Origin: a virus
Lineage: Duplodnaviria > Heunggongvirae > Uroviricota > Caudoviricetes
IMG/VR virus record: IMGVR_UViG_2563366937_000005
Coordinates: 1 to 36,493 of that record
Strand: one strand, 5' to 3'
DNA length: 36,493 bases
Every line of letters starts with the position of its first letter. The stretch's first letter is position 1. The notes under the pieces were generated by a model that was not told the DNA's origin, did not search any database, and worked only from the letters and a program-made list of their open reading frames with translations. Position numbers and translations under genes: made by a program. Positions 1,331 to 15,506 of the stretch are shown here, piece by piece.

Positions 1331-1377
1331 TCCACCGTGATTCACGTTCGTGAACATGTCCTTTCAGGGCCGATATA

Positions 1378-1453
1378 GCTCAGTTGGTAGAGCAGCGCAT
1401 TCGTAATGCGAAGGTCGTAGGTTCGACTCCTATTATCGGCACCATTAAAATCA
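1378..1453 (+). tRNA. thrW: tRNA-Thr (anticodon CGT), thrW; 3' end carries the prophage attL core
   Basis: 76-nt sequence GCCGATATAGCTCAGTTGGTAGAGCAGCGCATTCGTAATGCGAAGGTCGTAGGTTCGACTCCTATTATCGGCACCA folds as a cloverleaf: 7-bp acceptor stem GCCGATA/TATCGGC, anticodon loop TTCGTAA, T-loop TTCGACT, 3' CCA encoded. The integrase gene stops 6 nt downstream. Confidence 0.9.
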
Positions 1454-2622: not shown

Positions 2623-2849
2623 TTTCTTTCCTCTGTTATGCCATCACCCGCGCTCACCAGGACAGTATGCAGCGGAGACTGAAGAGCCGCAATGCAGGCT
2701 TGTCGTGTTGTGAGGTAAGGAGATTTATTCTTAGTGGGATCTTTGCGTGTTGCCTGAAGACGCCCTGTGCGTATCCAGTTAATGGCAGTCGGTCTGGATA
2801 TCTTGAGAAAATGACAGGCCTCATCGAGTGTGAGGCTGTATGGCTCCAT
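2499..2849 (-). CDS. xis: Excisionase (Xis, AlpA/HTH_17-type DNA-binding protein)
   Basis: Start chosen at the internal Met ([33 protein letters not shown]...), giving 116 aa; the 3' end overlaps the int start; the start ATG overlaps the upstream gene stop (TAATG). Confidence 0.7.
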
Positions 2850-3154
2850 TATTTCACCTCTTGTTGTGACATTGTTGAAAAATGGATACCAGCTCGTTGC
2901 TGCCAGACGATCCAACCGAGAGTCATATCCCATGCCATGTATTCGTTATCGCCGTTTTTTGCTCTCCGACGATCTACTAAGTCACCGAAACGCTTTTCCA
3001 TGAATAATTCATAAGCTTCGCGTTCATCTGGTTCTACTTCCAGAGATAGGAGTGCGATTTCATAAGCACGGCGCTCAATATCGTCTCGCACGTCAAGGCT
3101 GCTGATACGCTCTTTAATTTCTTTAATCAGTTCTTTGTCGGTAAAAGTGGTCAT
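2849..3154 (-). CDS. Hypothetical early protein (101 aa; YfdT-like by size and position)
   Basis: ORF in the leftward early operon, translationally coupled to xis (1-nt stop/start overlap); acidic, helical-looking sequence. Homology assigned from memory only. Confidence 0.5.
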   Translation of the reverse strand: MTTFTDKELIKEIKERISSLDVRDDIERRAYEIALLSLEVEPDEREAYELFMEKRFGDLVDRRRAKNGDNEYMAWDMTLGWIVWQQRAGIHFSTMSQQEVK

Positions 3155-3516
3155 TATGCTCCAGCCTCCGGTGCTTTTGGCATTACTGCCCAGTGAGTGA
3201 TATTGACGTTTTCAAGGTCCCCGACCTGAAATGTCCACTGCCATTCTCCTGTTTCTTTTTGTCCCCAGGTGTACCAGAGAGAACGCCAGCCAATTAGCCA
3301 GCCTTCTCCGTTAGCATCGAATAACAAAACACTTTCATTTGCTGGTGGCAGTTCAGTTGACACTGGTATTGCTTTGTTTTCCTGTGCTGCACATTTAGCT
3401 TCAAGCGCATCGAATTTGCGCACCAGGTATTCAGCATCTGTTTCATTCACTTTCAGATCTCGCGGTACATATCTCCCACGAAGAAACCCTTCCATTTCGA
3501 AAACATTCATGCGCAT
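3154..3516 (-). CDS. Hypothetical early protein (120 aa; YfdS-like by size and position)
   Basis: ORF with 1-nt overlap to the downstream gene; Trp-rich C-terminal half. Part of the same leftward operon. Confidence 0.5.
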   Translation of the reverse strand: MRMNVFEMEGFLRGRYVPRDLKVNETDAEYLVRKFDALEAKCAAQENKAIPVSTELPPANESVLLFDANGEGWLIGWRSLWYTWGQKETGEWQWTFQVGDLENVNITHWAVMPKAPEAGA

Positions 3517-4043
3517 TTGCGTAACTCCGATAACTCGTTAAAACGTTCCATAAACATCCCGTAGGCATGGCCCGGTGCCAGTGGAATCACGTTGAACATC
3601 TCTGTTGCCGGGATGCCTTCCAGTACAGGCCAGAAAGAGCCATCATCAAGCCCGAGATCGCGGCGTTCGGTTGCCAGCATGATGAGATCGGCATATTTCA
3701 CAGGCGTGCTCATAACCGGGGGTAACCCGTATTTCTCACGGATTACGGCGTCTATTTTTTCTTCCATCCGTTTATAGTCAGGAAGAAGGCGTTTCAGTGG
3801 CGCGGGGATGTCCTGACAATAAGCTTCTGTTGCATCATGCATTAACGCTTCAAAAGCAAATTCCTGCGGTACCAGCTGGCTGCAAAGCACCGCATGTTGG
3901 GCGACGCTGTAGAAGTGTGAAAGATGTCCTGCAAAGCGACAGATATTTGAAAGGGAAACCGCGATATCGTTAATATCGATGTTGTCTTTATTTATCCTGT
4001 CATAATAAAAATGCTTCCCGGAAAAAGTTTTAATAAATGACAT
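3507..4043 (-). CDS. yfdR: HD-domain phosphohydrolase (YfdR-like putative 5'-deoxynucleotidase)
   Basis: Start placed at the internal ATG (MSFIKTFSG...), preceded by GGAG with about a 6-nt spacer, giving 178 aa; contains the H...HD...D metal-binding pattern (FAGHLSHF...ALMHDATEAY). Confidence 0.65.
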   Translation of the reverse strand: MSFIKTFSGKHFYYDRINKDNIDINDIAVSLSNICRFAGHLSHFYSVAQHAVLCSQLVPQEFAFEALMHDATEAYCQDIPAPLKRLLPDYKRMEEKIDAVIREKYGLPPVMSTPVKYADLIMLATERRDLGLDDGSFWPVLEGIPATEMFNVIPLAPGHAYGMFMERFNELSELRKCA

Positions 4044-4137
4044 TTTGTTCTCCACGTTATATGCGCTGCACCGCGCTGAAATTTGGTTAAAGAAAAACCT
4101 CGCCATCAGGCGAATATTGAGTCAATTACGTTTCCAT

Positions 4138-4160
4138 AAATGCCCCCGCAGGGGCATTTG
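4138..4160. terminator. Perfect 7-bp GC-rich hairpin (atgcccc-cgca-ggggcat) between the yfdQ-like and yfdR-like genes; possible attenuator or RNA processing site
   Basis: Inverted repeat read directly; no strong U-tract on either strand, so not a canonical intrinsic terminator. Confidence 0.3.
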
Positions 4161-4171
4161 CAGTAATGAAA

Positions 4172-4996
4172 TCAGGCGGTGAAAGTACCAATAAAGGTTT
4201 CTACTTTGCTGTCTTTGAACTTCTCAACAAGCAGATCACGAAATTCGTTAGCCATTTCCTCCTGCACTGCTTCCAGCTGAATAATGCGTAGTATCAGTAC
4301 AGGACGATCGCCAGTGATAATGCTGAGGCGTAATTTAAACGGACGTTCTTTCAGACCTTCAAACGGAACGCATTTAAATTCAAATGCCACTGGCATAATG
4401 TCTTTGGTCTTCGCTTCGACAGACTCCATCAGGGAGCGTTTGCCGCTGAAGTCATTATCTTCAAAATCAGCGGTCTGGTTCGCTTCAATTGTGATTTTAC
4501 GGATCGCCGCAGCCGCTTTGGTTGCCTGAATGGCGTCACCATTAGCATCAAAGCCCACAAGGTAGTCGGCCCAGTCTTCAATCCATTCTGCCAGTGACTT
4601 CTGGGAGTTACGCTCGCCGTTAACAGACAACAGGGCAGAGAACGGTGCTGTCTTTTTCAGTTTGAGAGTGGCGGTGTTATCTGCGTGACCTGGTTCATCA
4701 ATAGTACCCAGGTTAAGCACACTGACGGCTCGCATATTATCGGCATCGATAAAGCAGCGGGTGCCTTCATCTGCAAGATCTTTAGAATAACGGGTAAAGT
4801 CATCGATGCTGGCAGTGGAAAGCGCACCACGGAAACGGAAGCGATTTAAATTAAATTTTTCCAGATCATGAATGCGGAAATTCTCAGGCAATGCCACAGC
4901 ATCGGCACCAATCTTACTGATAATTTCATTAACACCCTGAGCAGAAATAAGGGCATGGATTTGATTAATTGCGGTTGCGTCTAAGTTCTGAGACAT
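4172..4996 (-). CDS. yfdQ: YfdQ-like protein (DUF2303 family), function unknown
   Basis: 274-aa ORF; length and sequence character match my recollection of the CPS-53 YfdQ family; not verified by search. Confidence 0.6.
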
Positions 4997-5061
4997 AATA
5001 AGTCCTCACTATATAAAGATATTCAGTGATGAGATAAATAATCAGTTTATTAAGAACGATA

Positions 5062-5424
5062 TTAACGACCTGCTGCGCGGAGTTTTCCGTCAGGCTCACC
5101 GGCAAGAGTCAGTAATTGTCCCTGGTCTTCCTGCAGAATAGTCAGGCGACCACCGCGATTGACATACATCGGCGTTTCGGTGGTGTCTTCTTCGGAAATT
5201 TTCCCGCGGTTAGTCGGGCGAACATATGAGAGTTTGTGTTTGATTTTCACTCGGTTCTCATCAAACGGTTCGATTTCTAGGTTGAGCGAGACCTTACCTT
5301 TGGTTTTCGTGTTCATCACACCGGAAGCGACTTCACTGAGAACTGCGCCGATTTTGGTTTCAAATACGCCGCCGTCCAGCTCCCCGATAAATGCCTGCAC
5401 ATCAGTACTGCGTTCGCTAGCCAT
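5062..5424 (-). CDS. Hypothetical early protein (120 aa; YfdP-like by size and position)
   Basis: Start chosen at the internal ATG (MASERSTDVQAFIGELDGG...), preceded by GAGGAG with a 7-nt spacer. The upstream extension of the track ORF runs into a GC-rich, low-complexity stretch and is unlikely to be coding. Confidence 0.55.
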   Translation of the reverse strand: MASERSTDVQAFIGELDGGVFETKIGAVLSEVASGVMNTKTKGKVSLNLEIEPFDENRVKIKHKLSYVRPTNRGKISEEDTTETPMYVNRGGRLTILQEDQGQLLTLAGEPDGKLRAAGR

Positions 5425-5984
5425 TTTGCTGCTCCTCATCATATCGACCCTGCAAGGTCGGTTAGTTTCTCCACAAAACAGAGAAGAACACCTGCGGTGG
5501 CAGCCGCCCGGATGGATTGGGTTATGAGCCCGTCGTCCGGTGATGCTCTTCTCTGTTTTGTAAAAAGAGCGGTACCAGCCGGAAGCAAGGGTACAAACTG
5601 GTACCGCCAGGACTACACACAGCATAAAGTTGTGGTGCCGGGTGCCTCCCGGTGCCTGGCGAAGGTTGCACACCAGGCGGGTGGGTATCCACAGAAGGTC
5701 GACTGTCAGCCTCAACCTTAACCCGCGTGCGCTGAGCCGCATTCACCACAACGCTAAGAATTCTCTCTGGTTGAAAATACTTAGCTGTTATGTGCCTGCT
5801 TTTAGCCACATCAGGCGAGGTGGACCTGGTTATTCCCCAACAACAAGGATTCGGTTAATCTGGTTATCCCCAACAACAAAAGGATTTTTTTTATGAAGTG
5901 CAATGGCTATGAAGAGCGGCACATGCCTCCTTACAAGAGGCCAGAACCACCGCCAAAACCTGATGATTCAGACTGAGGTGAAAC
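5425..5984. promoter_or_regulatory. Large structured GC-rich non-coding region between divergent early genes; probably holds the leftward early promoter/leader
   Basis: No convincing ORF (the track ORFs here are Pro/Gly/Arg-rich low-complexity); 15-bp near-perfect inverted repeat caaaacagagaagaa (about 5473-5487) / ttcttctctgttttg (about 5548-5562); several further GC stems (ggtaccag/ctggtacc, ccggg/cccgg, cctgg/ccagg); two direct repeats at 5826-5885. Confidence 0.5.
5826..5885. repeat. Two direct repeats CTGGTTATyCCCCAACAACAA(A)GGAT about 34 bp apart, followed by a T8 run
   Basis: Read directly at 5826-5850 and 5860-5885, just upstream of the plus-strand gene at 5985; candidate regulator binding sites. 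Confidence 0.5.
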
Positions 5985-6458
5985 ATGTCCCGGCGTGACT
6001 TGATATTTGATCTTCATTATTCGCATTACCTCGAAAAGATGTTTGCAACATTGACTGGTCGCATCGACCGGTTGATGACTTTCCTAATTATTTTGTCGGG
6101 ATGTGGTGTTTTTGTTTCTATCACTGGCTACGTTTGGTTTGGCGCATTTATCGCAGCCTTATCGGTTAGCCAAGTTGTTTATCAATTCTCCCGCTCTTCA
6201 GGTATTGCAACTGAACAAGCTCGCTTATATCTGGAACTAATCACCGATGAACCTTCTCTTACGGAAGAGGAATTACTCGCGCGTTTTAAACATTTGCAAA
6301 ACGCCGATTCAAAACCTTGGGGTTGCCTGGAATTACCAGCTCAGAAAAGAGCAACGATTGTACTGGGCCTTACTGATACAACCAGGGAACTCTGCAAGCA
6401 AGAGGTGTTCGCCGCATGGTTGGCTGGAGATCTACCGAGGAAAAATCCCCATGGTTGA
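5985..6458 (+). CDS. Small inner-membrane protein (157 aa, two predicted TM helices) at the sieB/rex-like position of the immunity region
   Basis: ATG preceded by GAGGTG; hydrophobic segments LMTFLIILSGCGVFVSITGYVWFGAFIAALSV; followed by an intrinsic terminator. Function inferred from position only. Confidence 0.5.
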   Translation: MSRRDLIFDLHYSHYLEKMFATLTGRIDRLMTFLIILSGCGVFVSITGYVWFGAFIAALSVSQVVYQFSRSSGIATEQARLYLELITDEPSLTEEELLARFKHLQNADSKPWGCLELPAQKRATIVLGLTDTTRELCKQEVFAAWLAGDLPRKNPHG

Positions 6459-6561
6459 AAGAGCTGGTGGTCATAAACCGGCTAACCCAAGACCTCCACA
6501 ACCAGTTGGGCCAAAGCCTAAAGCTTGATTGTTGATGGATACCCAGATTGTTAAAGAGCGA

Positions 6562-6586
6562 AGCGTCCTGTAGGGCGCTTTTTTGT
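6562..6586 (+). terminator. Rho-independent terminator downstream of the 157-aa membrane protein gene
   Basis: Stem agcgtcc/gggcgct (7 bp, one G-U pair), loop tgta, then a T6 tract. Confidence 0.55.
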
Positions 6587-6800
6587 TGCTAACGAATCAT
6601 CCTGGACTTCATATGCCCCAGGCGGCTACTTAGTGGGCGTCCTGCCTGTTCATTTTTGACATTTACTGACCGCTTACGACACAGGCACCATGTTGCAACC
6701 AGATTTTGTTGTAATCCTGTAGTTGGTCTGGAACAAAAGATAAAATTAAATTGCGAGGCATGCAAGTAATATTTGCGGGATTTGCAAAATGATGGAGGGA

Positions 6801-6823
6801 TAAAAAGCCACCTTTCGGTGGCT
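6801..6823 (-). terminator. Rho-independent terminator downstream of the cI-like repressor gene
   Basis: On the minus strand: AGCCACC-GAAA-GGTGGCT followed by TTTTA, about 20 nt after the repressor stop codon. Confidence 0.6.
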
Positions 6824-6842
6824 GATGGATGGGATATTGAGG

Positions 6843-7535
6843 TTAATTATGTCTCTTAAGGGTTTGCGACTGACTGATTAAGACCTTTCCAAAGACCATG
6901 AATCGGTGTTCGTTTTCGCTAGTAATTCCCCATTCACGGTAAATCTGGTTATCAGAAATCACCAGCAGTTTGTCAGGAATCATTTGAAGTCTTTTAACGT
7001 ATATTTTGTCATCAAAACCAAAGACATATATACCATCACCATCAAACTGATTGATGCTGACATCAACGAAGATGAGATCTCCTGGCTCAATGGTTGGACA
7101 CATACTGTCCCCACGAACGTTGATAACTTTGATGTGATTGGCTGGTCGTCCGCCGAACATTGATACAGCATTATCAGTTCTGTATTCGATGGCATGAATC
7201 ACATCAATGACATCACCGCCCTGGATAAGGCCATTTCCCGCACTGGCACTGATATCCAGCATTTCAATACGGAACACATCCTTCACCTGCGCAACATCCT
7301 CATTATTACTGTTTTTATATACAGTATTGCTTTTGAGGGCAGAGGTAAAGAGATCAGCAATATCAACACCTAAGCTCTTGGCAATATTACTCAGTGTTTG
7401 TTCGGTAAATTGTTTCTGCTTACCCGTTTCTAAGCGCGAGATGTTCGCCGCATCTACTCCTATTGCTTCAGCGAGATCGGCGATTTTCATGTTCTTCGCT
7501 TGGCGAAGTTGTCTGACTCGGTTTCCTATGTTCAT
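6843..7535 (-). CDS. cI: CI-like prophage repressor (N-terminal XRE-type HTH plus C-terminal S24 LexA-like autopeptidase domain)
   Basis: 230 aa; N-terminal HTH (RVRQLRQAKNMKIADLAEAIGVDAANISRLETGK); C-terminal S24 motifs GDSM (VRGDSMCPTIEPGDLIFVD) and a downstream KR; divergent from the cro-like gene across an operator region. Confidence 0.85.
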   Translation of the reverse strand: MNIGNRVRQLRQAKNMKIADLAEAIGVDAANISRLETGKQKQFTEQTLSNIAKSLGVDIADLFTSALKSNTVYKNSNNEDVAQVKDVFRIEMLDISASAGNGLIQGGDVIDVIHAIEYRTDNAVSMFGGRPANHIKVINVRGDSMCPTIEPGDLIFVDVSINQFDGDGIYVFGFDDKIYVKRLQMIPDKLLVISDNQIYREWGITSENEHRFMVFGKVLISQSQTLKRHN

Positions 7536-7632
7536 GCGTTTATTACATTTCTTTATTGCGTGATAAGCAAATCAACTTGCGCAAAATACTTGCGTGAAAT
7601 AACATGCATAACGCGCAATATTTGGAGGGTAT
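7536..7632. promoter_or_regulatory. OR-like divergent promoter/operator region between cI and cro, with repeated TTGCG/CGCAA half-sites
   Basis: 97-bp intergenic region containing TTGCGtgataaGCAA (7556-7570), palindrome TTGCGCAA (7576-7583), TTGCGTG (7590-7596) and CGCGCAA (7612-7618); SD GGAGGG before the cro ATG. Confidence 0.5.
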
Positions 7633-7893
7633 ATGCAATCACCATTACGAAATGTGCGTAAGGCGCATGGTTTCACTTTGCAGCATGTTGCTGCGGGTGT
7701 TCAAGTCAATCCAGCGACGTTGAGTCGTATTGAGAGGCTGGAGCAGATTCCATCTATCGAGCTTGCAGAACGTTTAGCCAATTTTTTTAAGGGTGAAATC
7801 AGCGAAATGCAGATTCTTTATCCGGCACGTTTTCAATCTAGCCAAAACCAGAATGGGTTTAAACCACAGGAACAGGAGGTGAACCGTGGGTAA
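7633..7893 (+). CDS. cro: Cro-like HTH regulator (XRE family)
   Basis: 86 aa, first gene of the rightward operon; HTH segment FTLQHVAAGVQVNPATLSRIER. Confidence 0.7.
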   Translation: MQSPLRNVRKAHGFTLQHVAAGVQVNPATLSRIERLEQIPSIELAERLANFFKGEISEMQILYPARFQSSQNQNGFKPQEQEVNRG

Positions 7894-8443
7894 GCATCAC
7901 TGGAAAGTAGAAAAACAGCCTGAGTGGTACGTGAAAGCAGTCAGAAAAACTATCGCAGCGTTGCCGGGGGGTTACGCTGAAGCAGCTGACTGGCTGGATG
8001 TAACAGAGAACGCATTATTTAACCGCCTTCGTGCCGATGGCGATCAAATTTTCCCGCTGGGATGGGCAATGATTTTACAACGTGCTGGTGGCACTCACTT
8101 CATTGCTGACGCTGTGGCGCAGTCTGCAAATGGCGTCTTTGTGTCTCTTCCTGACGTCGAGGATGTGGATAACGCCGATATTAACCAGCGCCTGCTGGAA
8201 GTCATTGAACAGATTGGCAGTTATTCCAAACAGATTCGTTCGGCAATCGAAGACGGTGTGGTGGAACCGCATGAGAAGACAGCAATTAACGACGAGCTGT
8301 ATCTCTCAATTTCGAAGCTGCAGGAGCATGCAGCACTTGTCTACAAAATTTTTTGCATTTCAGAAAGTAATGACGCCCGCGAGTGTGCAGCTCCGGGCGT
8401 CGTGGCGTCGATTGCTTCTGGTTGTGGAGAAACTAACGCATGA
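7886..8443 (+). CDS. CII-like regulatory protein (CP76/CII family by position and character)
   Basis: 185-aa ORF overlapping the cro stop; in the cII position; family assignment from memory only. Confidence 0.5.
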
Positions 8444-12746: not shown

Positions 12747-12763
12747 TTTTGTGGAGAAAGTTG

Positions 12764-13108
12764 ATGCGTGATATGTATGAAGTTTTAGACCGCTGGGGAG
12801 CGTGGGCTGCAGCAGATAACAGTGGTGTGGACTGGCAGCCGATAGCAGCAGGCTTTAAGGGGCTTTTACCTCATGGTAAAAAAATACGCCTTCAGTGTGA
12901 TGATGATGAAGGCATCATGATAGACGGCTGTGTTGCCCGCTTGTGTAAGTATAAACCAGACGAATATGAGCTGATCATTGCTCACTTCGTTATAGGTATT
13001 TCACTGCGTTCTATTGCGAAGAGACGCAGATGCTCAGATGGAACAATCCGGAAGCAATTGCAGACTGCGTTAGGTTTCATTAATGGGGTTATGTACATGC
13101 TCAAGTAA
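12764..13108 (+). CDS. Late-gene antiterminator Q (QuuD-like)
   Basis: Start at ATG 12764 (GGAG plus 7-nt spacer); MRDMYEVLDRWGAWAA...IAAGFKGL...CDDDEGIMIDGCVARL...CSDGTIRKQLQTALGFINGVM parallels DLP12 QuuD (VLERWGAWAA...IAAGFKGL...CCDDDAMIICGCMARL...CSDGYIGKRLQKAEGIIEGM, from memory). Confidence 0.75.
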   Translation: MRDMYEVLDRWGAWAAADNSGVDWQPIAAGFKGLLPHGKKIRLQCDDDEGIMIDGCVARLCKYKPDEYELIIAHFVIGISLRSIAKRRRCSDGTIRKQLQTALGFINGVMYMLK

Positions 13109-14327
13109 TATTTGGCATTAATTTAAATAAAATACCGATGATGCCTATGAATGTAGGCATCCATGCTAGTGATAATAAACTGTCAAGCACCTTATGACAA
13201 AAATCCTCATTGTCATTTAATTTTTTAATAGCCTCTTCTAAGCTCTCTTTAAGATCGCTGGTGTCATCCTTTATTCTATATCTTAATTGTCCAAAAAGTA
13301 TTTCTTTAGAGTGTGAAATACGAGCGAGTTGTTTTTTTTGTGACACAATCATTGCAGATGTTATTATTGCTGTGATAATCAATCCAATTAAAGCAATAAT
13401 CCAATCAGTTTTTGTTGTTAATTTGAAAATAGCAATTGAACCAGCTAGTGAAATAGGTATTGCAAGAGCTTTGTTAGAAATTTCTGAAATTATTTTTGAC
13501 AGTTTTTCTGAGTAATCGAGTTCAGCATCAACAACTTCTTTCCTTGCTTTATGAAAAGAAAATGCCGACATATAAGCAGCTAAGTTGTTCGTATAAAGTT
13601 CGCATATGAAATCCCACTTGTTAATTAACTCGACAAAGGAATTTCCATTTTTATTAACATACTCAATAACTGTGTTTCTGAAAGTGTTAATCTTTTCAAT
13701 GTGATGGGCATCAGTAGTAGCTTCACTACTTACTAATGTTTTAACTAACTGAGTATTTACTGTTTTATCATTAAAAATTTCTTCTGTAATATTTGTTTCA
13801 ATTACAGCAGAAGAAGATTTAGACTCTGAGTTTAAAATAAAGACTAAACGATAAAATGTACCTTTGCTATCTTTTTTTATATCATGGAAATGAGCAAGCA
13901 TGGAAAGAGCATTGATTAGCTCACAAATGTCCTCAATTTTTTGGATATAAGAAGGTTTTGGTGTTTCTAATGAATAGAAATCATCCTCTATAATATAGAA
14001 ATACTCTGGCATTATGCCTTTCTTGAGCGTGTTTATTTTTACAAACTCGTTTTTATTTTTATAAAAACGATTCGCACTTCCTTGTGAAATTTTAAACGAG
14101 TATGTAAGAAAATTTCCCTTTTCAGGAAAGTCTTCATAATCATAAATTAAATGACCATCCACCTCTATTTCGTCAGCTGTACCAGCTTGAAAAGTAGGGT
14201 TCAAAATTCTTTTGAACAATGATTTTACGTCTGCATTATAAGCTATACGCGCAGAAAACTTAGCCCCGTCAAAATGAGGATAGCTTGATAATCTATACAG
14301 ATTAACTATTATACTAAAATCATTCAT
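13101..14327 (-). CDS. Hypothetical 408-aa protein with two C-terminal transmembrane helices (second gene of the AT-rich cassette; candidate membrane effector)
   Basis: ATG at 14327 overlaps the upstream gene stop (ATGA); about 285-aa soluble N-terminal region with no motif I recognise; hydrophobic helices LAIPISLAGSIAIFKL...WIIALIGLIITAIITSAMIV and LLSLAWMPTFIGIIGILFKLM; 3' end overlaps the convergent Q stop by 8 nt; strongly AT-rich. Confidence 0.6.
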   Translation of the reverse strand: MNDFSIIVNLYRLSSYPHFDGAKFSARIAYNADVKSLFKRILNPTFQAGTADEIEVDGHLIYDYEDFPEKGNFLTYSFKISQGSANRFYKNKNEFVKINTLKKGIMPEYFYIIEDDFYSLETPKPSYIQKIEDICELINALSMLAHFHDIKKDSKGTFYRLVFILNSESKSSSAVIETNITEEIFNDKTVNTQLVKTLVSSEATTDAHHIEKINTFRNTVIEYVNKNGNSFVELINKWDFICELYTNNLAAYMSAFSFHKARKEVVDAELDYSEKLSKIISEISNKALAIPISLAGSIAIFKLTTKTDWIIALIGLIITAIITSAMIVSQKKQLARISHSKEILFGQLRYRIKDDTSDLKESLEEAIKKLNDNEDFCHKVLDSLLSLAWMPTFIGIIGILFKLMPNIT

Positions 14328-15472
14328 TCTTTATCTTCTTCATTACTCGGGTTATCAGTTTCTTTCAACGCTCTTCTTATCTTAGTTAATGCTTCAACAG
14401 GCAAATTATTAAATGTTAGGCTTTGGTTTTCGTCATCATAATATATTTTAGCATCAGTTGTGACACCGAGTAAATCCTTGTCGAAGTGAAAGCTCAATGA
14501 TGGGGTTTTATATATCACATTGCGGATTTTATCTAAGGAGTTTTTATTGATTACGAACTCTGATGGGATTCTGACTTCCTCACTATTGAGGTGTTTCATT
14601 AATTTATCAACAAGTTCTGTTTTTTCTTCCTCTTTTAAATCGGACATATGGCCTGAAGCAAGCGATTCGATATCAGAAAGCCTTGCAGAGTGCTCGTTGT
14701 CAAATTGCTTTTCTAAGTATTTGATAACATCATTTCTAAATGACTCTGCTTGATTTTTTAAAAGAGGTTCTTTCTTAAAGAAACGCCTTATTTCATCTGG
14801 TAACTTACGGGTTGCACCTGCTGAAGCAATCCCCTTGTCACATCCTAATGCTGCTATAAAATATGCTGCCGCTGACTGTCCCGTAGTTTTGCTTATAAAG
14901 CTTAGATAACTTAAGTCTGTTTTTTTTAAGTCATCTGCTTTTTGGTATTCTTCATAATATCTGAAATTTATTTTTGCTGCTTGGTTAATATTGCCAAGTT
15001 CTAAGTGAATCATTTCCTCTGGCTCTAAATTTTCACTAATAGTTACGCCATTAGTTTTTTTGATCATTGTAACCAATAGATAACGGAAACCAGATAAAAT
15101 ATAATCAGTAAAAACAACATATCCTCCAGAAGCCCAAATCTGCTCTTGAGCAGATTTATACATTTGTTTCATAACTTCCTTCGATAATTCAATGAAATCA
15201 CTTGAAACAGATTGTTGAACTAAAGAGTATTTATGAAATAGTTCTGGTATAGGGCCTTGCTTTGTTTTATTTTTAATAAAAACACCATAATGCGCTGAGT
15301 TCCCTTTTGAACCATACAAATCAATAACACCGTCTACTAATTTTTTTACTATATCATTTGTTTTATCTAGTTCTGTATCACGAAGATTGTATGGTTTGGA
15401 GTGATCGAAGTCTTTATTAGATTCTTTTAAGAGCTCATGAACGATTACGTGGCGTATGCTTACTTTGCTCAT
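14324..15472 (-). CDS. NdpA/YejK-like nucleoid-associated protein homologue (NA37 family) (first gene of the AT-rich cassette)
   Basis: Start probably at the second ATG ([14 protein letters not shown], compare YejK MSLDINQIALHQL); the track ORF begins 18 nt upstream at 15490. Similarity to YejK along the whole length, e.g. [22 protein letters not shown] vs [36 protein letters not shown] vs [32 protein letters not shown] vs RYLTFLKGRVGRKVADFF, C-terminal [18 protein letters not shown] vs LTIKGTPPNLRDQLQRR (YejK from memory). Confidence 0.6.
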   Translation of the reverse strand: [382 protein letters not shown]

Positions 15473-15506
15473 TTTTTTGGTCAATTCCATGCGGTTAAGC
15501 TAACAA

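Follow-up and report, generated by a model that had tools for sequence, protein, structure and literature searches.

The subject of this work is a gap in the early-left region of a caudovirus genome, IMG/VR record IMGVR_UViG_2563366937_000005, which was analysed over its whole length of 36,493 nucleotides (the window). The gap (5425-5984) separates the leftward gene yfdP from a rightward open reading frame (ORF) of 157 amino acids, and an earlier note, made from the letters alone, had taken it for a non-coding, structured RNA leader in a phage without a recognisable N antiterminator. With moderate confidence we read the gap as the promoter-distal end of an untranslated leader of about 1.3 kb in the operon of the leftward early promoter, pL, joined to the start of a moron, a variable accessory-gene cassette, on the opposite strand. 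The RNA part would be a composite module of the STnc100/DicF type, a small RNA (sRNA) with its terminator, placed before yfdP. The gap element is an ordinary one: a copy of a catalogued prophage small-RNA family, followed by two terminator hairpins, and not an antiterminator of the HK022 type.

We come to this reading because the STnc100 match lies above the gathering score, on the strand that is sense to yfdP; because helices P1 and P5 of the RNA carry compensatory and U.G changes, and the minus strand outfolds both its shuffles and the plus strand; because the first hairpin behind the core, T1, has a 13-bp stem and a U5 run, the second hairpin reaches -47.8 kcal/mol, and phage ST64B retains a hairpin with a U-run in place; because the G/U-rich stretch UGCUGUGUGUAGUC is conserved before at least four terminators and in DicF-slot RNAs (38-41 bits); because no gene-like leftward ORF lies between pL and the terminators; and because, in the literature, STnc100 copies are expressed in EHEC lysogens, the copy behind stx2 overlaps an Hfq-bound RNA and the related PasD has targets in RIL-seq (RNA interaction by ligation and sequencing).

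The STnc100-type core

The earlier note had proposed an Rfam scan and a comparative alignment of related prophages in search of compensatory changes. The sole Rfam match in the gap above its gathering score is indeed STnc100 (RF02076), a minus-strand match from 5560 to 5782 that scores 47.2 bits (gathering score 47, E = 2.7e-7) and spans model positions 1-206 of 206; a scan for tRNA or tmRNA within the gap found none. The core domain folds with -56.6 kcal/mol (z score -3.1). For the whole minus-strand RNA of 406 nt (5425-5830) the values are -173.6 kcal/mol and -5.5, compared to -156.9 kcal/mol and -3.1 for the plus strand, and the nested GC stems seen in the earlier note are present. The flank 5' of the core (5753-5823) is common to SfV and, in part, to the Cronobacter phage phiES15; further upstream the sequence differs.

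An exact-pattern scan of viral contigs yielded 29 different variants of the core, which fall into some six subfamilies. Most of these ~30 variants, each folded separately, have the same architecture, and the sequences of P3 and P4 are wholly different between the subfamilies. In a MAFFT alignment on which no structure was imposed, P1 is 97% paired and three of its pairs are changed on both sides (U-A, A-U, G-C and U.G occur at one position, U-A, C-G and U.G at another), P5 is paired to 95% and carries five changes from G-C to U-A, and none of 500 shuffles reaches the observed covariation score. P4 is only 44% paired on this alignment; the subfamilies are misaligned there, and the separate folds were used instead. 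On the opposite strand the many U.G pairs would turn into C.A mismatches, and the RNA is therefore sense to yfdP. Of the options raised in the earlier note, a sRNA or a long structured leader thus fits what is found, a non-coding, structured RNA on the leftward strand.

EDL933 carries eleven copies of STnc100, a family of prophage sRNAs; they are expressed in lysogens, and for one of them a Northern blot gave confirmation (PMC5331693). A copy is located 75 nt behind stx2B (PMC12370729), and the post-stx2 copy overlaps EcOnc27/sRNA103, an Hfq-bound RNA that, when overexpressed, raised the transcripts of fimZ and espA (PMC12711010). PasD is structurally related to STnc100, and it is for PasD that RIL-seq targets are described (bioRxiv 10.64898/2026.05.13.724894).

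The same core, with 31-42 bits to STnc100 and in the sense orientation, is found in several other phage settings. It lies just 5' of kil in phiES15 and 5' of tciA in the phages P1 and SJ46. In mEp460 and Stx2a_1447 the closing helix and the GAAU junction are kept and the inner hairpins differ; then follow an identical terminator, the long hairpin and yfdP. In the Qin-like PPompW (L010, 1843-2101) DicF (76.7 bits) is followed directly by an STnc100-like core and then by dicB. Helix P1 of this core is lengthened to ~20 bp, with 27 nt between its end and the dicB ATG, and may correspond to the site at which RNase III is reported to act in DicF maturation. The phage mEp237 (L229, 2450-2723) has a compact pL leader of ~230 nt, composed of the promoter, the RNA motif R1 described below (91 bits), a minimal STnc100-like core and the start of kil. 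This minimal core, GGUGGUGAAU...CCGUGA-AGAUCAGCG-UCACGG-CACCACC, was recognised from the sequence, without an Rfam score.

The DicF-like terminator and the long hairpin

Downstream of the core the RNA continues with the G/U-rich stretch and the intrinsic terminator T1, which is the 3' hairpin of the STnc100 model. T1 contains a perfect 10-bp inverted repeat (I7) and has -24.6 kcal/mol; the hairpin that ST64B carries at this position is a different one. In unrelated prophage contexts the 14-mer UGCUGUGUGUAGUC, or a close variant of it, stands before at least four different terminator hairpins, and it is also present in the DicF slot of Qin-like prophages. Since the same sequence is kept while the structural background changes, it looks like a base-pairing seed. 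The match of the window to DicF (RF00039) at 5567-5621 has 15.7 bits (E = 3.2), below the gathering score of 48, as are near-identical modules in two other phage loci, L035 and L039, with 41.1 and 38.1 bits. A DicF-like targeting of ftsZ was considered and dropped, since duplex energies could not separate real DicF from shuffles.

Directly behind T1 comes the long hairpin. The earlier note had described it as a 15-bp near-perfect inverted repeat with a loop of about 60 nt; the 15-bp arms (5473-5487 and 5547-5561) are in fact perfect, enclose 59 nt and extend to 25 nt at 84% complementarity. As RNA the hairpin, with an A-tract on its 5' and a U-rich 3' side (CUGUUUUGUGG), has a z score of -6.3, and it is putatively a second terminator and/or an RNase III-type duplex. 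It is 98-99% conserved along with yfdP, even where the upstream core differs (mEp460, Stx2 phages), and the comparison with ST64B gives one compensatory change of G-C to A-U.

Prophage setting and the putative pL

The window represents an SfV/SfIV/SfII/ST64B-type lambdoid prophage, inserted at tRNA-Thr (Table 1). From 5400 to 5884 it has 97-98% sequence identity to SfIV, Kati and others, likewise to SfV from 5400 to 5823, and ST64B is 77% identical to 5461-5768; mEp460, cdtI and Stx2 phages have only 5400-5609 in common with the window. Matches to 5425-5984 occur in 2782 of 5426 complete E. coli genomes, about half, and cover at least 80% of the segment in 750. The earlier note had called the gap much more GC-rich than its neighbours. 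This is too strong: the gap overall has 51.8% GC compared to 50.9% in the whole window, and only 5473-5782 is raised, modestly (55.5%, compared to 46.4% and 44.9% in the flanking genes).

Table 1 Features of the gap and of its surroundings in the window
Feature	Position	Strand	Description
STnc100-type core domain	5629-5752	minus	~124 nt, five helices; Rfam match, folds, covariation
Core P1		minus	closing helix GUUGUGGUG/CACCACAAC, then GAAU junction
Core interior		minus	hairpin P2, variable domain P3 and hairpin P4 inside P1
Core P5		minus	CCGGG-AGGCA-CCCGG, abuts P1 3' strand
Conserved 5' flank of element	5753-5823	minus	two small hairpins
Flank hairpins		minus	GCCUG...CAGGC and GCUAAG...CUUAGC (5753-5785); inverted repeat I4
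G/U-rich stretch, putative seed	5611-5624	minus	UGCUGUGUGUAGUC; unpaired in predicted folds
Intrinsic terminator T1, DicF-like	5561-5608	minus	13-bp stem GGCGGUACCAG.../...CUGGUACCGC, then CUCUUUUUAC
Long hairpin (inverted repeat)	5473-5561	minus	22-25 bp, branched tip; directly after T1
Small hairpin	5443-5462	minus	5' of yfdP
yfdP Shine-Dalgarno sequence	5432-5437	minus	GAGGAG, read directly from the sequence
yfdP	5062-5424	minus	120 amino acids; ATG 5424-5422; left border of the gap
yfdT, yfdS, yfdR, yfdQ, yfdP homologues	2849-5424	minus	leftward genes
tRNA-Thr(CGU)	1369-1444		integrase next
Two direct repeats	5827-5892	plus	CTGGTTATYCCCAACAACAA(A)GGAT with ribosome-binding site (RBS); moron 5' untranslated region (UTR) or promoter region; repeat families D1 and D4
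27-codon proline-rich ORF	5893-5976	plus	MKCNGYEERHMPPYKRPEPPPKPDDSD; stop 8 nt before ATG of the 157-amino-acid ORF
157-amino-acid ORF	5985-6458	plus	two transmembrane segments; right border of the gap
boxA	6547-6559	minus	GCUCUUUAACAAU; 13 nt identical to E. coli rrnB leader boxA
Weak hairpin	6560-6581	minus	followed by boxA
R1 RNA motif	6591-6654	minus	~64 nt; promoter-proximal, 5' end of pL transcript
R1 layout		minus	P1; AGGCAGGACGCCCACGAAGUAGCYGCC; P3 hairpin with loop GGCAUAYGAA; GGAUGA; P1 3' strand
Putative pL	6765-6760 (-35), 6742-6737 (-10)	minus	TTGCAT and TATCTT, spacing 17; start at about 6730
Two TTGC-N7-GCAA operators	6751-6765, 6773-6787		beside cI 3' end, overlapping pL
cI	6843-7535	minus	
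cro	7633-7893	plus	
CII-family gene	7886-8443		
Q-like antiterminator	12749-13108		

The earlier note had treated the gap as one region between divergent early genes, with a possible part in the control of leftward early transcription. Instead, 5827-5984 belongs to the plus-strand moron, the right-hand gene is a variable moron gene and not an early one, and leftward transcription would start outside the gap, since OL-type operators together with the putative pL lie at about 6737-6787. The window has three TTGC-N7-GCAA sites, all flanking cI (the third in OR, 7556-7570), and the same promoter geometry recurs in mEp460, Stx2a_1447, phiNP and ST64B. Operators that flank cI and overlap a recurring promoter geometry lead us to infer that pL fires at about 6730, a promoter that our consensus scan had missed. 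It lies ~900 bp to 1 kb to the right of the STnc100 element, and the leftward leader runs for ~1.3 kb, with no plausible ORF and antisense through the moron, before it reaches yfdP. In agreement with the earlier note, which had found no N-like gene, no small arginine-rich ORF is present between pL and yfdP, and Pfam and PHROG find CII and Q in the window and no N. SfII, SfV and SfIV are also described as lacking N (PMC3851460), and so is the related phage LLS, for which the authors speculate on a put-like mechanism (PMC12315714).

Elsewhere in the window, a second moron at 13101-15490 (minus strand) places two leftward genes between the Q-like gene and the lysis genes, one belonging to phrog_5023 (function unknown) and one to a nucleoid-associated-protein family. 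The rightward operons of SfV (L001, 6012-6200) and ST64B (L002, 5732-5920) have matches to IsrK and C4 antisense RNA; the window is without such matches.

The plus-strand moron

The right-hand ~160 bp of the gap (5827-5984) are the start of the moron. Only two flanks of 5824-6600 are conserved in the phage collection, as expected of a cassette between fixed flanks, and the cassette itself (5885-6530, plus strand) has no DNA match in that collection beyond them; homology to SfIV and Kati ends at 5884. The same direct repeats and AAGGA recur in another locus, L042, where a different moron has its start codon immediately after them. The ORF of 27 codons is too short for the program-made ORF list and has no family match in Pfam or PHROG; its PEPPPKP is a possible ribosome-stalling leader. 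The ORF of 157 amino acids matches phrog_6315 (unknown function) over its full length.

The direct repeats TCCCCAACAACAA at 5834-5846 and 5867-5879 have a spacing of 33-34 bp and read as GUUGUU-GGGG-AAUAAC hairpins on the leftward strand. A similar pair, YUGUUGGGGA with a spacing of ~34 nt, is present on the leftward strand of HK639 (L226, ~33835-33880).

R1 and an rrn-type boxA

Two further RNA signals lie outside the gap, near pL. R1 recurs across contigs of enterobacterial phages, with at least 73 distinct copies, tens of nt downstream of strong promoters with differing operators. Its two helices are paired in 94.1% of the alignment cells, compared to 63.8% after shuffling and 19-44% in slid controls, and the covariation score is 0.727, compared to 0.18 for shuffles; variants of R1 helix P1 are GCGAA/UUCGC, CCACC/GGUGG and GUCAUC/GAUGAC. 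Its fold (z score -0.5) gives no thermodynamic support, so that covariation is what speaks for the structure. R1 has no match in Rfam, and in the literature its sequence gave matches to unrelated primers only. A covariance model finds essentially one copy per locus (58 loci) and none in HK022, HK639, mEp460, Stx2a_1447 and phiES15. We also looked for a second copy in the pR operon and rejected it, since a search of the window with filters off gave the pL copy only. The first ORFs after R1 in 76 loci include none that is N-like. In two R1 subfamilies (L162, L133, L140 and others) the first ORF, 60-190 nt after R1, codes for a conserved peptide of ~40 amino acids, MIDFARKPxRQQAV.L...E.IIRR.CY.LAQKG.P, which is not arginine-rich in the manner of N and may be cIII-like.

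Behind R1 follow the weak hairpin and GCUCUUUAACAAU, the only exact copy of the rrnB boxA in the window, ~170 nt from the putative start of pL. This module of hairpin and boxA follows R1 in 13 of 83 contexts. On the plus strand the hairpin has -13.7 kcal/mol and a U6 run and ends the moron; on the minus strand it has -9.1 kcal/mol and no U run. boxA recruits NusB/NusE and the Nus complex, and untranslated RNA is thereby protected from Rho, a protection that would suit a long untranslated leader. Complexes of the rrn type counter Rho, and suppression of intrinsic terminators, like those at 5473-5608, is not known for them. An indirect hint of Nus dependence comes from the R1-carrying phage mEp237, a member of a collection that is described as Nus-dependent (PMC11893012).

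R1 and boxA are better candidates for an antitermination that is independent of N than the gap element. It is tempting to speculate, and we do so tentatively, that this class of N-less phages may achieve its early antitermination not inside the gap but ~700 bp to its right. R1 could then represent a new class of antiterminator that acts as nascent RNA, or of leader that modifies the polymerase, and in some phages it would act alongside a boxA identical to that of rrn and recruiting host Nus factors. If this were true, the STnc100/terminator module would be the barrier that the R1 system overcomes.

Discussion

What the analysis shows is the match to the family, the RNA structure and its strand, the hairpins and the conserved seed; termination in vivo, release of the sRNA, its action in trans and read-through belong to the following model. 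Leftward transcripts that have not been made resistant to termination would stop at the tandem hairpins, and this stop would keep the genes from yfdP through int silent. Termination and/or processing would release a stable RNA of the STnc100 type of ~200 nt, which may act in trans via its G/U-rich stretch, as reported for Hfq-bound relatives. Polymerases modified further upstream, with R1 and the rrn-type boxA as candidate signals, would read through into the operon.

Several observations weigh against this model. The STnc100 score is at the threshold, and close relatives are below it, SfV with 39.5 and ST64B with 35.1 bits. A consensus scan of 5000-7800 found no sigma-70 promoter, hence none directly upstream of the element, though the same scan also missed the putative pL, and inspection by eye gave no convincing site either; an independent sRNA gene is therefore putative and a processed product only assumed. 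Expression as a discrete, Hfq-bound RNA is reported for other STnc100 copies only (PMC5331693, PMC12711010). No target of the seed was identified, and duplex energies with the ftsZ translation-initiation region do not differ from those of shuffles even for genuine DicF, a comparison that has no power to discriminate. Finally, the core stands immediately 5' of dicB in the Qin-like prophage and of kil in mEp237 with neither the seed nor a terminator behind it.

This last arrangement points to a cis role for the core, which is a serious alternative, even if we regard it as rather unlikely. The STnc100-type core would then be a cis-acting 5'-UTR domain for the next gene, affecting its translation, its processing by RNase III/E, its stability or the access of Rho, and the sRNA-like 3' part would be secondary. 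The idea gains from the position of the core, which in unrelated phages lies in sense immediately before the first gene of an operon that is early-left or similar: yfdP in the window, SfV and ST64B, kil in phiES15 and mEp237, dicB in PPompW and tciA in P1 and SJ46. Several of these genes bear the annotation of an inhibitor of cell division. Between the core and the start codon there is no terminator in PPompW and mEp237, and the P1 helix of PPompW has a length that suits RNase III. In the window, however, two strong hairpins and ~200 nt lie between the core and the RBS of yfdP, no pairing of the core with any RBS was seen, no ligand- or protein-binding signature was identified, and for family members behind stx2 the literature describes separate RNA species that are bound to Hfq (PMC12711010, PMC5331693).

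A put-like RNA in the gap, the first of the options in the earlier note, would bind RNA polymerase as in HK022 and give read-through of the downstream terminators. The phage has no N gene (PMC3851460), the compact, structured core lies ~20 nt upstream of two terminator hairpins and the authors of the LLS study, working on an N-less relative, entertained the same idea (PMC12315714). Nevertheless, we consider it improbable. The element is not promoter-proximal but ~1 kb away from pL, and it resembles neither putL/putR of HK022 nor the putL-like RNA of HK639: a BLAST comparison of HK022 putL with the window gave chance matches only, although putL does detect putR within HK022, and the annotated putL-like RNA of HK639 resembles HK022 putL and neither the gap nor R1. 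Rfam finds no second copy in the window, hence none in the pR operon; in Qin-like prophages the core follows the DicF terminator and no terminator lies ahead of dicB; and family members act, according to the literature, as terminated, Hfq-bound sRNAs. That the region codes for protein is more improbable still, to a degree that led us to reject it. Some phage records do annotate hypothetical proteins or a long YfdP here, which in the window would be an ORF of 226 amino acids (5062-5742), and the plus-strand ORF 5497-5721 matches phrog_3651 with E = 7e-50. This match, however, covers profile positions 88-160 of 162 only and the frame is therefore broken in the window; the YfdP PHROG is matched only by the last 120 residues of the long ORF, no ORF of the gap has a match in Pfam, and the indels between window and ST64B (1, 1, 19 and 1 nt) disrupt the frame. 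The variation tracks RNA pairing, including the U.G pairs on the minus strand, and the SfV and Stx2a_1447 records annotate only the YfdP of 120 amino acids. The ORF that matches phrog_3651 (a family of 162 amino acids, unknown function) lies antisense to the RNA, and the family is probably a spurious one built on conserved RNA-coding DNA. Between yfdP and the 157-amino-acid ORF no gene is supported on either strand, which bears out the view of the earlier note that the gap is non-coding and its ORFs unlikely to be real.

Taken alone, the presence of a sRNA-terminator module before yfdP is of little weight, given that E. coli prophages often carry this sequence and that the family is catalogued. 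Public records, however, treat this DNA as hypothetical proteins, phrog_3651 appears to be built on it, and marking it as RNA corrects these annotations. The STnc100 core appears as a portable module that stands beside DicF-type modules and 5' of the toxic early genes dicB, kil and tciA, an arrangement that connects two families of sRNA and hints at a cis role. Tandem terminators before the first early-left gene of a phage without N raise the question of how SfV/ST64B-like phages read through, and R1 and the rrn-type boxA are concrete candidates for this.

Comparison with known systems

As in the rrn boxA system, the boxA of the pL transcript follows a hairpin, in rrn order; in the window it lies outside the gap. 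With the lambda system of nutL/N and tL the window shares terminators early in the pL operon that must be overcome, but it has neither an N gene nor a pair of boxB and arginine-rich motif. The likeness to put is that of an N-less lambdoid phage with a structured leftward leader RNA upstream of terminators, and R1 is, like put, promoter-proximal in the pL transcript and ~65-70 nt in size. Neither the gap nor R1 has sequence or profile similarity to put, and the pR operon of the window is without a copy.

Compared to DicF, the 3' module of the window stays at its 15.7 bits, the single-stranded 5' stretch is UGCUGUGUGUAGUC and not UUUCUGGUGACGUUU as in DicF of K-12, and the order is core followed by sRNA module, whereas it is DicF followed by core in Qin-like prophages. 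Over its first ~30 nt, however, this module (seed, GGCGGUACCAG... hairpin and U-run) is near-identical to the DicF-slot RNAs of Qin-like prophages; like DicF it lies inside a polycistronic early-left transcript, and in Qin-like prophages DicF itself adjoins the STnc100-type core.

The canonical STnc100 copies of the literature are late-region elements, placed directly behind stx2 or close to Q (PMC12370729; PasD preprint), whereas the copy of the window is part of the early-left leader and has a DicF-like 3' module, and its close relatives are below the threshold, with 35-40 bits. What it shares with the family is the full-length match at the gathering score, the multi-helix core and the prophage location, the nearly invariant GUGGUGAAU...CACCGGGAGGCACCCGGCACCAC, a closing helix around several hairpins with CCGGG-AGGCA-CCCGG beside its 3' strand and, as in a terminated sRNA, a 3' hairpin with a U-run (13-bp stem at 5569-5608, then CUCUUUUUAC).

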